Of a stretch of 64,000 nt of DNA, positions 21,289 through 60,145 are shown piece by piece. The stretch lies in the NCBI RefSeq assembly GCF_011045215.1, contig NZ_CP049201.1; one strand, written 5' to 3'. A model generated the notes under the pieces. The model was not told the origin of the DNA. It did no database searches and was given only the letters and a program-made list of their open reading frames with translations. A program made the translations under genes and the position numbers. Within the stretch, counting starts at the first letter, position 1, and each line of letters opens with the position of its first letter. Origin of the DNA: Escherichia coli (lineage in GTDB: Bacteria > Pseudomonadota > Gammaproteobacteria > Enterobacterales > Enterobacteriaceae).

Positions 21289-22825
21289 AATAGTCATTAA
21301 ACCGAATACCTATTTTGATTCTGTCTCGCTGATGTCTATCTCCACGCGTGCAAATAAACTCGACGGCGTCGAGCAGGCATTTGTGGCGATGGCGACCGAA
21401 ATGAATAAAGGCGTGCTGAAGAATTTAGGACTGCTGACGCCGGAGCTGGAACAGGCGAAAAACGGCGACCTGATGATTGTCATCAATGGTAAATCGGGTG
21501 CGGACAACGAGCAGTTGCTGGTGGAGATTGAAGAACTGTTCAACACCAAAGCGCAAAGCGGCTCGCACGAGGCGCGTTACGCCACTATTGCCAGCGCCAA
21601 AAAGCATATCCCGGAAAGTAACCTGGCGGTGATTTCGGTCAACGGTCTGTTTGCCGCTCGCGAAGCGCGTCAGGCGCTGCAAAACGATCTCAACGTGATG
21701 CTGTTTTCCGATAACGTCTCGGTTGAAGATGAACTGGCGCTCAAACAGTTGGCCCATGAAAAAGGGCTGCTGATGATGGGGCCGGACTGCGGCACGGCGA
21801 TTATCAACGGCGCGGCGCTCTGCTTTGGTAACGCCGTGCGTCGCGGTAACATCGGTATTGTTGGCGCATCCGGCACCGGCAGCCAGGAGCTGAGCGTCCG
21901 CATTCATGAATTTGGCGGAGGCGTTTCGCAACTCATCGGCACCGGCGGGCGCGACCTGAGCGAGAAAATCGGCGGCCTGATGATGCTCGACGCCATCGGG
22001 ATGCTGGAAAACGATCCGCAAACTGAAATTATCGCGCTGATTTCAAAACCTCCCGCGCCTGCGGTGGCCCGTAAAGTGCTGGAACGCGCCCGCGCCTGCC
22101 GCAAGCCGGTGGTGGTCTGCTTCCTCGGTCGTGGCGAAACGCCAGTGGACGAGCAGGGGCTACAGTTTGCTCGCGGCAGCAAAGAAGCGGCGCTGAAAGC
22201 GGTGATGCTCTCCGGCGTGAAACAGGAACATCTCGATCTGCATACCCTGAACCAGCCGTTGATTGCGGATGTGCGTGCGCGTCTGCAACCCCAGCAGAAA
22301 TACATTCGTGGCCTGTTCTGCGGCGGTACGCTGTGTGACGAAACCATGTTCGCGGTGATGGAAAAACACGGCGATGTCTACAGCAACATCCAGCCCGATC
22401 CTGAATTCCGCCTGCAAGATATCAACCGCAGCATCAAACACACCTTCCTCGACTTTGGCGATGACGACTTCACCAACGGCAAGCCGCACCCGATGATTGA
22501 CCCCACCAACCGTATCAGCCGCTTGATCGAAGAAGCGCGCGATCCAGAAGTGGCGGTGATCGTGATGGATTTTGTGCTCGGATTTGGATCGCACGAAGAT
22601 CCGGTTGGTTCCACCATCGAGGCGATCAAAGAAGCGAAAGCGATCGCCGCTGCCGAAGGACGCGAGTTGATCATTCTCGCCTATGTGCTGGGTACCGATC
22701 TTGATACGCCATCGTTAGAACAACAAAGCCAGATGCTGCTTGATGCCGGAGTGATTCTGGCGAGCAGCAGCACCAATACCGGATTGCTGGCGCGTGAATT
22801 TATCTGCAAAGGGGAGGAAGCCTGA
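21278..22825 (+). CDS. yahF: FdrA-like protein (succinyl-CoA synthetase-like CoA-binding/ligase folds)
   Basis: 515-aa ORF; FdrA-family architecture. Confidence 0.85.
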   Translation: MSVKIVIKPNTYFDSVSLMSISTRANKLDGVEQAFVAMATEMNKGVLKNLGLLTPELEQAKNGDLMIVINGKSGADNEQLLVEIEELFNTKAQSGSHEARYATIASAKKHIPESNLAVISVNGLFAAREARQALQNDLNVMLFSDNVSVEDELALKQLAHEKGLLMMGPDCGTAIINGAALCFGNAVRRGNIGIVGASGTGSQELSVRIHEFGGGVSQLIGTGGRDLSEKIGGLMMLDAIGMLENDPQTEIIALISKPPAPAVARKVLERARACRKPVVVCFLGRGETPVDEQGLQFARGSKEAALKAVMLSGVKQEHLDLHTLNQPLIADVRARLQPQQKYIRGLFCGGTLCDETMFAVMEKHGDVYSNIQPDPEFRLQDINRSIKHTFLDFGDDDFTNGKPHPMIDPTNRISRLIEEARDPEVAVIVMDFVLGFGSHEDPVGSTIEAIKEAKAIAAAEGRELIILAYVLGTDLDTPSLEQQSQMLLDAGVILASSSTNTGLLAREFICKGEEA

Positions 22826-24243
22826 TGAGCCAGTCACTGTTTAGCCAACCATTGAACGTTATTAACGTCGGCATCGCCATGTTTAGCGATGACCTGAAAA
22901 AGCAGCATGTAGAAGTGACTCAACTCGACTGGACGCCGCCGGGGCAGGGCAATATGCAGGTGGTGCAGGCGCTGGATAACATTGCCGATTCGCCGCTGGC
23001 AGACAAAATCGCCGCCGCTAACCAGCAGGCGCTGGAGCGCATTATCCAGTCGCATCCGGTGCTGATTGGTTTTGATCAGGCGATTAACGTGGTGCCGGGC
23101 ATGACGGCGAAAACCATTCTTCACGCCGGGCCGCCGATCACCTGGGAAAAAATGTGCGGCGCGATGAAAGGCGCGGTCACCGGAGCGCTGGTGTTCGAAG
23201 GGCTGGCGAAAGATCTCGATGAGGCGGCTGACCTGGCGGCTTCCGGGGAGATCACCTTCTCGCCGTGTCACGAGCACGACTGCGTGGGATCGATGGCGGG
23301 TGTGACCTCGGCCTCGATGTTTATGCACATCGTAAAAAACAAAACCTACGGCAACATCGCTTATACCAACATGAGCGAGCAGATGGCGAAGATTTTGCGT
23401 ATGGGCGCTAACGACCAGAGCGTGATTGACCGCCTGAACTGGATGCGTGATGTGCAGGGACCAATACTGCGCGACGCGATGAAAATTATCGGCGAAATCG
23501 ATCTGCGCTTAATGCTGGCGCAGGCGCTGCATATGGGCGATGAGTGCCATAACCGCAATAACGCCGGGACGACGCTGCTGATTCAGGCGCTGACGCCGGG
23601 GATTATCCAGGCGGGCTATTCCGTGGAGCAACAGCGCGAAGTGTTTGAGTTTGTCGCCAGCAGCGACTACTTCTCCGGCCCGACGTGGATGGCGATGTGT
23701 AAAGCGGCGATGGATGCGGCGCACGGCATCGAATACAGCACCGTCGTTACCACCATGGCGCGTAACGGCGTCGAATTCGGCCTGCGAGTCAGCGGATTAC
23801 CGGGGCAATGGTTTACCGGCCCGGCGCAGCAGGTTATTGGCCCGATGTTTGCCGGTTATAAGCCGGAAGATTCAGGGCTGGATATTGGCGACAGCGCCAT
23901 CACTGAAACCTACGGTATTGGCGGGTTTGCCATGGCGACCGCGCCTGCAATCGTCGCGCTGGTCGGCGGTACGGTGGAAGAGGCTATCGATTTCTCCCGT
24001 CAGATGCGCGAAATCACTCTCGGTGAAAACCCCAACGTCACCATTCCGCTGCTCGGTTTTATGGGCGTGCCGTCGGCAATCGACATCACCCGCGTGGGTA
24101 GCAGCGGCATTCTGCCGGTGATCAACACCGCCATCGCCCATAAAGATGCGGGCGTCGGCATGATTGGCGCGGGCATTGTGCATCCACCTTTTGCCTGCTT
24201 CGAGAAAGCCATTCTTGGCTGGTGCGAACGTTACGGCGTCTGA
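22825..24243 (+). CDS. yahG: DUF1116-family protein (YlbE paralog)
   Basis: 472-aa ORF starting on the yahF stop codon (ATGA overlap). Confidence 0.85.
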   Translation: MSQSLFSQPLNVINVGIAMFSDDLKKQHVEVTQLDWTPPGQGNMQVVQALDNIADSPLADKIAAANQQALERIIQSHPVLIGFDQAINVVPGMTAKTILHAGPPITWEKMCGAMKGAVTGALVFEGLAKDLDEAADLAASGEITFSPCHEHDCVGSMAGVTSASMFMHIVKNKTYGNIAYTNMSEQMAKILRMGANDQSVIDRLNWMRDVQGPILRDAMKIIGEIDLRLMLAQALHMGDECHNRNNAGTTLLIQALTPGIIQAGYSVEQQREVFEFVASSDYFSGPTWMAMCKAAMDAAHGIEYSTVVTTMARNGVEFGLRVSGLPGQWFTGPAQQVIGPMFAGYKPEDSGLDIGDSAITETYGIGGFAMATAPAIVALVGGTVEEAIDFSRQMREITLGENPNVTIPLLGFMGVPSAIDITRVGSSGILPVINTAIAHKDAGVGMIGAGIVHPPFACFEKAILGWCERYGV

Positions 24244-24254
24244 CCTACATGTTC

Positions 24255-24715
24255 ATGCCGGATGCGGCGTGAACGCCTTATCCGGCCTACAAGTGGCGCA
24301 AGAATTTGTAGGCCTGATAAGCGTAGCGCATCAGGCATTTGTCACCATTGCCTGATGCGGCGTGAACGCCTTATCCGGCCTACGAGTGGCGCGAGAATTT
24401 GTAGGCCTGATAAGCGTAGCGCATCAGGCATTTGTCACCATTGCCGGATGCGGCGTGAACGCCTTATCCGGCCTACGAGTGGCACGAGAATTTGTAGGCC
24501 TGATAAGCGTAGCGCATCAGGCATTTGTCACCATTGCCGGATGCGGCGTGAACGCCTTATCCGGCCTACGAGTGGCACGAGAATTTGTAGGCCTGATAAG
24601 CGTAGCGCATCAGGCATTTGTCACCATTGCCGGATGCGGCGTGAACGCCTTATCCGGCCTACGAGTGGCACGAGAATTTGTAGGCCTGATAAGCGTAGCG
24701 CATCAGGCAATTTGG
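24255..24715. repeat. REP/BIME array, about 5 tandem units of 93-94 bp
   Basis: Unit gccggatgcggcgtgaacgccttatccggcctacgagtggcgcgagaatttgtaggcctgataagcgtagcgcatcaggcatttgtcaccatt recurs starting near 24258, 24351, 24444, 24538 and 24631. Confidence 0.9.
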
Positions 24716-24758
24716 CGTTGGTCACAACCCCATCATCCTCTGTAGCGGACATAACAAA

Positions 24759-25709
24759 ATGAAAGAGCTTGTGGTCGTTGCCATTGGTGGCAACAGCATT
24801 ATCAAAGATAACGCCAGCCAGTCGATTGAGCATCAGGCGGAGGCGGTGAAAGCCGTCGCCGATACGGTGCTGGAAATGCTGGCTTCCGATTACGACATTG
24901 TGCTGACCCACGGTAACGGGCCGCAGGTCGGGCTGGATTTACGCCGTGCGGAGATTGCCCACGAGCGCGAAGGGCTGCCCTTAACGCCGCTGGCGAACTG
25001 TGTGGCAGATACGCAGGGCGGCATCGGCTATCTGATCCAACAGGCGCTGAATAACCGGCTGGCGCGTCACGGCGAGAAGAAAGCCGTCACCGTGGTGACT
25101 CAGGTGGAAGTGGATAAAAACGATCCAGGTTTTGCCCATCCCACCAAGCCCATTGGTGCATTCTTCAGTGAAAGCCAGCGTGACGAATTACAAAAGGCAA
25201 ACCCTGACTGGCGTTTTGTTGAAGATGCCGGACGGGGCTATCGCCGCGTGGTCGCCTCGCCGGAACCGAAACGTATTGTCGAAGCACCCGCCATTAAGGC
25301 GCTGATCCAACAAGGCTTTGTGGTGATTGGCGCGGGCGGCGGCGGAATTCCTGTGGTGCGTACTGACGCGGGAGATTACCAAAGCGTGGACGCGGTTATC
25401 GACAAAGATCTCTCTACCGCGCTACTGGCTCGCGAAATTCACGCCGACATTCTGGTGATCACCACTGGCGTGGAAAAAGTGTGTATTCATTTTGGTAAAC
25501 CGCAGCAACAGGCGCTCGATCGGGTGGATATTGCCACCATGACCCGCTATATGCAGGAAGGGCATTTCCCGCCCGGCAGCATGTTGCCAAAAATCATCGC
25601 CAGCCTGACGTTCCTGGAACAGGGCGGCAAAGAAGTGATTATCACCACGCCGGAATGCCTGCCTGCGGCGCTGCGCGGTGAAACGGGCACCCATATTATT
25701 AAAACGTAA
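24759..25709 (+). CDS. yahI: Carbamate kinase-family protein
   Basis: 316-aa ORF; amino-acid kinase fold motifs (VVVAIGGNSI, THGNGPQVG, VIGAGGGGIPV). Confidence 0.9.
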   Translation: MKELVVVAIGGNSIIKDNASQSIEHQAEAVKAVADTVLEMLASDYDIVLTHGNGPQVGLDLRRAEIAHEREGLPLTPLANCVADTQGGIGYLIQQALNNRLARHGEKKAVTVVTQVEVDKNDPGFAHPTKPIGAFFSESQRDELQKANPDWRFVEDAGRGYRRVVASPEPKRIVEAPAIKALIQQGFVVIGAGGGGIPVVRTDAGDYQSVDAVIDKDLSTALLAREIHADILVITTGVEKVCIHFGKPQQQALDRVDIATMTRYMQEGHFPPGSMLPKIIASLTFLEQGGKEVIITTPECLPAALRGETGTHIIKT

Positions 25710-38911: not shown

Positions 38912-39838
38912 TGTCGGATGCGTCGCGTGGCGCATCCGACAGTTGTGCGCAGATGCCTGATGCGACGCTGGCGCGTCTTATCATGCCTACAGGCCTGAAC
39001 CGTAGGTCGGATAAGGCGCTCGCACCGCATCCGACACCGTGCTCAGTGCCTGATGCGACGCAGGCGCGTCTTATCATACCTACAGGCCTGAACCGTAGGT
39101 CGGATAAGGCGCTCGCGGCGCATCCGACACCATGCGCAGATGCCTGATGCGACGCTGATGCGTCTTATCATGCCTACAGGCCTGAACCGTAGGTCGGATA
39201 AGGCGCTCGCGCCGCATCCGACACCATGCGCAGATGCCTGATGCGACGCTGATGCGTCTTATCATGCCTACAGGCCTGAACCGTAGGTCGGATAAGGCGC
39301 TCGCGCCGCATCCGACACCATGCGCCGATGCCTGATGCGACGCAGGCGCGTCTTATCATGCCTACAGGCCTGAACCGTAGGTCGGATAAGGCGCTCGCAC
39401 CGCATCCGACACCGTGCTCAGTGCCTGATGCGACGCTGATGCGTCTTATCATGCCTACAGGCCTGAACCGTAGGTCGGATAAGGCGCTCGCGCCGCATCC
39501 GACACCATGCGCAGATGCCTGATGCGACGCTGATGCGTCTTATCATGCCTACAGGCCTGAACCGTAGGTCGGATAAGGCGCTCGCGCCGCATCCGACACC
39601 ATGCGCCGATGCCTGATGCGACGCTGGCGCGTCTTATCATGCCTACAGGCCTGAACCGTAGGTCGGATAAGGCGCTCGCGCCGCATCCGACACCGTGCGC
39701 AGATGCCTGATACGACGCAGGCGCGTCTTATCATGCCTACAGGCCTGAACCGTAGGTCGGATAAGGCGCTCGCGCCGCATCCGACACCATGCGCCGATGC
39801 CTGATGCGACGCTTACCGCGTCTTATCATGCCTACCCA
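38912..39838. repeat. Large REP/BIME array: about 10 tandem units of 93-94 bp between prpE and codB
   Basis: Unit gcctgatgcgacgctg[g/a][c/t]gcgtcttatcatgcctacaggcctgaaccgtaggtcggataaggcgctcgcgccgcatccgacacc[a/g]tgcgcagat recurs starting at 38955, 39048, 39142, 39236, 39330, 39423, 39517, 39611, 39705, 39799; each unit holds two opposed REP palindromes. Confidence 0.9.
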
Positions 39839-42554: not shown

Positions 42555-42640
42555 TTTATGCCGGATGCGGCGTGAACGCCTTATCCGGCCTACGTAGAGC
42601 ACCGAACTCGTAGGCCTGATAAGCGTAGCGCATCAGGCAA
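42555..42640. repeat. REP pair (BIME) between codA and cynR
   Basis: gccggatgcggcgtgaacgccttatccggcctac ... gtaggcctgataagcgtagcgcatcaggc. Confidence 0.85.
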
Positions 42641-46019: not shown

Positions 46020-46095
46020 GTTTCTGCGCTTTGTTCACGCCGGATGCGGCCTACGTAGATCACTGAATTTGTAGGCCTGATAAGCGAAGCGTATC
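46020..46095. repeat. REP pair between cynX and lacA
   Basis: gccggatgcggcctacgtagatcactgaatttgtaggcctgataagcgaagcgtatcaggc. Confidence 0.8.
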
Positions 46096-46111
46096 AGGCA
46101 ATTTTTATAAT

Positions 46112-59784: not shown

Positions 59785-60145
<361 letters not shown>

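Follow-up and report, generated by a model that had tools for sequence, protein, structure and literature searches.

A five-unit BIME array homologous to REP23 between yahG and yahI of Escherichia coli: strain-variable repeat DNA that encodes no functional protein and may act as an mRNA hairpin barrier

The DNA analyzed here (the window) is a 64,000-nucleotide stretch of an Escherichia coli genome (contig NZ_CP049201.1). Its yah region is about 97% identical to yahD-yahJ of strain K-12, which bears out the names yahDEFG and yahIJ that a first-pass annotation, made from the sequence alone, had given to the genes flanking a repeat array. The matching NCBIfam models are FdrA for YahF, carbamate kinase for YahI and amidohydrolase for YahJ, and the RefSeq annotation places YahEFG in the FdrA/AllG oxamate-carbamoyltransferase gene families. 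The interval of interest is bordered by yahG (22825-24243, plus strand), a DUF1116/AllG-like coding sequence taken from the list of open reading frames (ORFs) and from the annotation that its homologue carries in K-12 and RefSeq, and by yahI (24759-25709, plus strand), a carbamate kinase family gene taken from the ORF list whose product scores 650 bits against NF009007. The yah genes are closely spaced, with short overlaps at yahE/yahF and yahF/yahG and gaps of 9 nt between yahI and yahJ and 39 nt between yahD and yahE; the 515-nt gap between yahG and yahI is the sole large one in the yahD-yahJ run. The suggestion that these genes form one operon fits this spacing as well as the adjacency of yahG and yahI, in that order, which is kept in other genera. 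The gap is filled by a REP array with multiple hairpins, and the genes on either side of it are co-oriented members of the same transcription unit.

Tandem Repeats Finder reported a single array at 24256-24714 of the window, with a period of 93, 4.9 copies, 98% matches, 0% indels and a score of 874, and direct-repeat analysis of the array gave the same 93-bp register. Together with pattern searches, this confirms the five-unit REP array that had been described between yahG and yahI, although its repeat length, put at 93-94 bp, is exactly 93. The pattern searches delimit the array to 24257-24708 (plus strand) and resolve it into five tandem 93-bp units, that is, ten REPs in five inverted pairs, each unit consisting of a y REP (34 nt), a 17-nt linker, a z REP (29 nt) and a 13-nt linker. 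The 34-nt pattern GCCGGATGCGGCGTGAACGCCTTATCCGGCCTAC has five copies on the plus strand, one of them with 1 mismatch. The y REP of unit 1, an iREP form ending in CTAC, occupies 24257-24290, and the further copies lie at 24350-24383 (with a G-to-T change at 24353), 24443-24476, 24536-24569 and 24629-24662. The 29-nt pattern GCCTGATGCGCTACGCTTATCAGGCCTAC has five exact copies on the minus strand, the first at 24308-24336, where the plus strand reads the form that begins with GTAG, and the others at 24401-24429, 24494-24522, 24587-24615 and 24680-24708. Chance expectation for both patterns was 0 matches in shuffled sequence. The 17-nt linker (24291-24307 in unit 1) reads AAGTGGCGCAAGAATTT in unit 1 and GAGTGGCACGAGAATTT in units 3-5, and the 13-nt linker ATTTGTCACCATT is found at 24337-24349 and again at 24430, 24523 and 24616. 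Units 3-5 are identical across their shared parts, with the 3' end of unit 5 passing into unique sequence. The array starts 13 nt past the yahG stop codon, these 13 nt forming the spacer CCTACATGTTCAT (24244-24256) ahead of the first REP stem, and it ends 50 nt short of the yahI ATG at 24759.

The array is the REP23 element of K-12 and as such was already catalogued: the phrase 'yahH (filled with REP23 sites)' appears in PMC11551758, and REP23 is also named in PMC4765031. The five-block structure and the controversy over yahH are likewise already in print. REP23 of K-12 shares the locus, flanks, y/z units and linkers with the array of the window but has four units rather than five. REP23 of O157/O55 strains also has five units, one of which carries a 1-nt deletion, whereas the array of the window has no indel. 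Further marks that set the window allele apart from K-12 and EHEC REP23 are the identity of units 3-5 and the G-to-T change in the y REP of unit 2. What is added here is minor and consists of the exact anatomy, a caveat on the type of z, the inverted orientation of the array with its G-rich sense strand, a copy-number census, a codon-position test, an in-frame/ATGA peculiarity of the window allele that is not conserved, and a cross-genus hairpin pattern.

Ton-Hoang et al. (PMC3333891) distinguish three REP palindromes in E. coli, y, z1 and z2, all with a conserved GTAG, and define BIME-2 elements as y/z2 pairs that are repeated in tandem with short linkers and in numbers that differ among strains. 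The 34-nt and 29-nt elements of the yah array are imperfect palindromes that can form stem-loops and fall within the 20-40 nt typical of REPs, and each of the ten copies has the conserved GTAG that marks the foot of the stem, read either as an initial GTAG or as a terminal CTAC. The elements are extragenic and highly repeated; in E. coli genomes, a query containing the array matched a median of at least 22 places. The array resembles the BIME-2 family in its alternating y and z REPs, its multiple tandem copies (five units) with short linkers (17 and 13 nt) and its variation in unit number between strains (0-5 units across E. coli). It differs from that family in the length of z, since z2 is 36 nt long both in the BIME 5' of rayT (where it is named z2, PMC3333891) and in REP325 (where it is named Z2, PMC4550694). 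Strict membership in BIME-2 was rejected because z is 29 nt here. BIME-1, which is a single y/z1 pair with a long L linker and an IHF site, was ruled out as well, as the array is tandem, its linkers are 13 and 17 nt long, and the IHF consensus WATCAANNNNTTR has no match within 24244-24758. The 29-nt z is taken by elimination to be z1. If it is z1, the array would strictly be an atypical BIME, a class that comprises multi-copy chimeras of y, z1 or z2 with short linkers. A RAYT transposase was not found within the window.

The window holds several other REP elements. The largest is a BIME array at 38931-39835 (period 94, 9.6 copies, about 905 bp), which has eight matches to the naRNA4 model on the plus strand and sits between a 628-aa ORF the size of PrpE and a 419-aa ORF the size of CodB. 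K-12 has REP26 at this junction, with a listed length of only 171 bp, so the allele in the strain of the window is strongly expanded. A BIME array with y and 36-nt z2 REPs (59785-60129; period 101, 3.4 copies) lies between ORFs of 337 and 423 aa, and on its minus strand the naRNA4 model matches three times with 84-88 bits. A lone pair of y and 29-nt z REPs with a 16-nt linker is located at 42560-42638, and a lone degenerate z REP at 46071-46099.

The number of units at the yah locus was counted in 60 records drawn systematically from the 5588 that matched, and the classes were verified by sequence in 13 strains. One unit was the commonest state (21 of 60 rows), and the four-unit allele of the K-12 type accounted for 14 rows. 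Five units were present in 4 rows, three units in 3 and two units in 4, while 7 rows had a REP-free 95-nt spacer and in another 7 the locus was missing or partial, as in strains with deletions of the lac region. Since about a tenth of the sampled genomes are REP-free and about a third have a single unit, the large array is dispensable. The identity of units 3-5 points to a recent duplication. Other five-unit strains carry linker variants in different orders, as expected from unequal exchange, and unit number presumably changes by unequal recombination or slippage. The 95-nt spacer of the REP-free allele (for example in L014, strain 190693) contains a CCCTTCTCCC...GGGGAGAGGG hairpin of the type that occurs at the same junction in Kluyvera and Klebsiella spallanzanii.

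Comparison of 36 units from 11 strains, which served as a test for coding, located variable columns at 10 of 34 positions of the y REP, 3 of 29 of the z REP, 8 of 17 of the longer linker and 6 of 13 of the shorter one, the two linkers being the most variable parts of the unit. One y REP carries two compensatory stem changes (GGCG/CGCC to GACA/TGTC). The variable columns are distributed 9/9/9 over the three codon positions in both open frames, and this pattern together with the compensatory changes indicates that selection or gene conversion tracks the palindromes and not codons.

A scan of one genome per species recovered 65 yahI-like loci, 42 of which have a YahG homologue upstream, and yahG and yahI are adjacent in 17 of these 42, with gaps of 79-315 nt. 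The first 80 nt past yahG fold at -18.7 to -54 kcal/mol in all 17, and z does not exceed -2.4 in 15 of them. The elements at these junctions were judged by eye, without clustering, to be of several unrelated-looking types. Junctions in E. albertii, E. whittamii and Pseudocitrobacter carry y/z REPs; elements of the CCCTCTCCC/GGGAGAGGG type and the GGGTGAGGG type occur in Kluyvera, Klebsiella spallanzanii and the REP-free E. coli allele; K. ascorbata and K. sichuanensis have another pair tagged with GTAG; and Raoultella, Citrobacter amalonaticus and an Enterobacter have single GC hairpins. The yahI ATG is preceded by a leader of about 37 nt (..CATCA-CCYTCTGTAGCGGA..; 24722-24758 on the plus strand of the window) that is conserved among Escherichia, Raoultella, Kluyvera, Citrobacter amalonaticus and Enterobacter, and everything upstream of it is replaced between genera. 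This leader may be a translation-initiation or regulatory element. In the Citrobacter freundii group (L020, L022 and others), Providencia and Proteus, yahG and yahI are some 1.5-2.0 kb apart, presumably with an additional gene between them, and a small hairpin still lies directly 3' of yahG. The large E. coli plasmids NZ_CP095821.1 and NZ_LR740759.1 were also noted to carry a carbamate kinase gene that resembles yahI and shares about 95-96% identity with the chromosomal copy.

The sense RNA of 24230-24770 is predicted to fold at -258.5 kcal/mol (z = -10.1 against shuffles), with values of -20.5 kcal/mol for the y hairpin, -11.5 for the z hairpin and -23.1 for an alternative tail-to-tail pairing of y and z. 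The plus strand of the array contains neither a hairpin followed by a T-run, as in an intrinsic terminator, nor a sigma-70-like site, and an intrinsic terminator or internal promoter within the array was rejected for that reason. On balance, and with moderate confidence, the array is read here as a BIME inside the yahDEFG-yahIJ unit that encodes no functional protein and is variable repeat DNA, probably acting as a hairpin barrier in the mRNA. Its anatomy, homology and polymorphism and the missing coding signature were observed directly, and the effects on RNA are inferred. Transcription of the operon would place about ten stable hairpins in the message. Based on studies with the homologous REP325 and on classic work with REPs, these hairpins would be expected to block 3'-to-5' exonucleases and so stabilize the upstream yahDEFG segment, while attenuation or termination, along with exposure of untranslated RNA, would reduce the amount of transcript that extends into yahIJ. 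Output of YahG could possibly be lowered by stalled terminating ribosomes since the first hairpin starts only 13 nt past the yahG stop codon. According to Liang, Rudd and Deutscher (2015; as cited in PMC12306157), REPs whose distance from the preceding stop codon is 15 nt or less are linked to ribosome stalling, mRNA cleavage and tmRNA tagging, and the distance between the TGA at 24241-24243 and the stem start at 24257 falls within that range. Stop-proximal REPs of this kind and stabilizers of the malE-malF type consist of one to three REPs, as opposed to the ten that follow yahG.

REP325 (naRNA1-6), the source of the Rfam family RF02564, is the closest studied counterpart of the yah array. 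It likewise consists of tandem y/z pairs with homologous 13-nt and 17-nt linkers, and it likewise separates two genes of a single operon that have the same orientation, yjdM and yjdN, which are co-transcribed (bioRxiv 10.64898/2026.03.23.713779). It differs in having six 100-bp units and the 36-nt z2, and its transcribed strand corresponds to the complement of that of the yah array. In full-length alignments, the antisense yah unit scored 119 against the sense unit of REP325 and the sense yah unit scored 51. The homology spans both linkers, the 17-nt linker being homologous to the complement of its counterpart in REP325, and the gaps amount to only two deletions, 7 nt in all, within z. Judging from these alignments, the yah array and REP325 have opposite orientations with respect to the direction in which their operons are transcribed. 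The sense RNA of the yah array is G-rich, with a C/G ratio of 0.85, while that of REP325 is C-rich, with a ratio of 1.27.

Harris et al. (2026) reported that REP325 stabilizes the upstream yjdM mRNA, cuts readthrough into yjdN about 8-10-fold, and, when deleted, lets the ratio of upstream to downstream mRNA change from 35 to 1 (bioRxiv 10.64898/2026.03.23.713779). Dependence on Rho was partial and was seen only with the full array. In the same study, tandem gene pairs separated by REPs were biased genome-wide toward expression of the upstream gene with wide, context-dependent scatter, and REPs brought no global increase in half-life. By analogy with REP325, the role in differential transcript stability or partial termination that had been suggested for the yah array is plausible. 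Homology and position indicate that the array should be an exonuclease barrier like REP325, and a termination component is less certain. Given its C/G ratio, the sense RNA does not have the C-rich character associated with partial Rho dependence and is likely to be a poorer Rho substrate than that of REP325. Among the entries listed in the accessible part of an in vitro Rho-binding table, the neighbouring REP24-26 appear and REP23 does not. These considerations, the inverted orientation, the G-rich RNA, the place of REP23 outside the listed Rho-binding entries, and the many genomes with no unit or one unit, argue that the yah array would be a weaker terminator than REP325. The Adams 2021 supplements contain no yah entries. 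If the regulatory reading holds, unit number (0-5) would tune the ratio of YahEFG to the YahI carbamate kinase and YahJ amidohydrolase, and such tuning would need no change in promoter or coding sequence.

It is possible, though rather unlikely, that the array is repeat DNA of a selectively neutral or selfish kind in a tolerated gap, in which case any effect on yah expression would be incidental and not selected. A copy number that ranges from 0 to 5 with one unit as the commonest state is what such DNA might show, and the identity of units 3-5, with the recent duplication to which it points, agrees with this explanation. So do the BIMEs in other intergenic gaps of the window (38931-39835, 59785-60129 and the y/z pair at 42560-42638) and the poor expression of the operon in laboratory K-12, where baseMean values are 33-151 in the available part of the source. 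Neutrality accounts less readily for the GC-rich hairpin that directly follows yahG in 17 of 17 species with adjacent yahG and yahI, and which belongs to several unrelated-looking types; this recurrence has the look of a hairpin conserved by position, although such gaps may simply attract palindromes. Nor does neutrality by itself predict that REP stems are kept, compensatory changes included, while linkers drift, but gene conversion could produce the same outcome. The junction pattern is compatible with selected hairpin 'punctuation' and equally with a permissive gap that attracts the palindromic repeats of each lineage. The recurrence of a hairpin after yahG across genera offers a modest new lead on whether intercistronic REPs are selected as punctuation or are gap-fillers.

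A role exerted mainly at the level of DNA, as a gyrase site, topological insulator or nucleoid-organizing cruciform, or through an HU-binding RNA like naRNA4, is improbable. Literature cited in PMC3333891 describes BIME-2 arrays as targets that DNA gyrase binds and cleaves, and REPs as binding sites for Pol I and IHF; the z REPs of the yah array, however, are of the 29-nt form and not the 36-nt z2, and the array lacks an IHF consensus. Qian (2015) proposed that REP325 RNA together with HU condenses the nucleoid. Four yah units match naRNA4 (RF02564) on the minus strand at 24311-24380, 24404-24473, 24497-24566 and 24590-24659 with 70.9, 78, 78 and 78 bits, which is above the gathering score of 59.5. 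These matches are antisense to the operon, and on the plus strand, the sense of the operon, the model reaches only 49-54 bits, which is under the threshold. The naRNA4 model gave 16 matches in all, and since it also matches the two other tandem BIME arrays of the window, the match is generic to units of this kind. A reading of the locus as a naRNA4 gene was rejected on both grounds, the similarity being a family resemblance rather than evidence for an sRNA. Moreover, Harris et al. found that neither deletion nor overexpression of REP325 affected the nucleoid, and observed no REP-REP contacts (bioRxiv 10.64898/2026.03.23.713779). A weak sigma-70-like site (TCGACT-16-GATAAT) is located at 24798-24825 on the minus strand, inside the 5' end of yahI, and points into the array. 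As the sole promoter-like site with that direction, it is not above chance, the scan for sigma-70-like sites having returned fewer sites than in shuffled sequence, and is probably a chance occurrence.

Two ORFs on the plus strand overlap the array, and both had been noted before and described as periodic products of the repeat that should not be called as proteins. One (24262-24762, frame 1, 166 aa) is in frame with yahG, its stop codon overlaps the yahI ATG as ATGA, and it is homologous to ORF X002 of EHEC. The other (24362-24745, 127 aa) lies in frame 2, the frame annotated as YahH (b0322) in K-12 and by PGAP, and the translation of b0322 belongs to the same peptide family. The peptide that was said to repeat verbatim does so in two units, but in two more it has an A-to-T variant and in the fifth it is truncated. 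The same structure of five blocks was described for EHEC EDL933 by Neuhaus et al. (2016, PMC4765031), who equated X002, which starts at the ATG equivalent to 24262 of the window, with yahH. They reported an RNA-seq RPKM of 87.7, which indicates sense-strand transcription of the array in that strain, as well as a footprint RPKM of 56 with a coverage of 0.61 and a ribosomal coverage value of 0.64, and they judged X002 to be 'quite probably' translated; the mass spectrometry columns for X002 are empty.

It is very doubtful that the array is a real gene (yahH or X002) for a repetitive, charged product with a function, even though K-12 retains b0322 as 'putative uncharacterized protein YahH', many RefSeq genomes carry a PGAP annotation as 'protein YahH' or 'hypothetical protein', and the EHEC ORF has ribosome footprints. 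The even distribution of variable columns leaves no third-position bias and hence no synonymous bias in either frame, and no frame or protein is conserved. The frame that is annotated is frame 2 in K-12, a hybrid of frames 1 and 2 in EHEC and frame 1 in the window. Among strains, the open frames vary in frame, length and end point, their length follows unit number, and they are gone from the one-unit and REP-free alleles. Neither ORF start is preceded by a Shine-Dalgarno-like sequence, both starts lie inside REP stems, and Pfam and NCBIfam searches of the ORFs gave only repeat-inflated matches below the cutoffs. The conclusion from these observations is that the array ORFs are not genes and that the array encodes no functional protein, in keeping with the earlier description of them as phantom ORFs. 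Candidate explanations for the EHEC footprints are reads that map to multiple places in a repeat of about 600 copies, hairpins that may survive nuclease treatment, and readthrough or re-initiation. The locus is a case in which a REP array yields long periodic ORFs that are still named as proteins, and its significance beyond annotation hygiene is slight.

The yahG stop codon (TGA, 24241-24243) is followed by C, and UGA-C is a weak context for termination. Frame 1 is open from the very next codon, and the 172 codons after the yahG stop remain open in the yahG frame up to the ATGA overlap with yahI (24241-24762). In alleles with an intergenic length of 2 mod 3, such as that of the window, ribosomes that read through or re-initiate might melt the hairpins, relieve attenuation and couple translation of yahI to that of yahG, and changes of a single base or in unit number might switch this coupling among strains; this proposal has very little likelihood. 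The 172-codon open frame and ATGA end occur only in some alleles, namely those of the window, FDAARGOS_943, PapM-32-1 and DA61218. They are absent from the four-unit allele (421-nt gap), the main one-unit allele (142-nt gap) and the five-unit O157/O55 allele (514 nt), in all three because of a 1-nt linker deletion. Since the former two are the commonest alleles, ATGA coupling was rejected as a conserved feature. If it did operate, coupling of yahG and yahI would explain the footprints in EHEC without a functional YahH protein.
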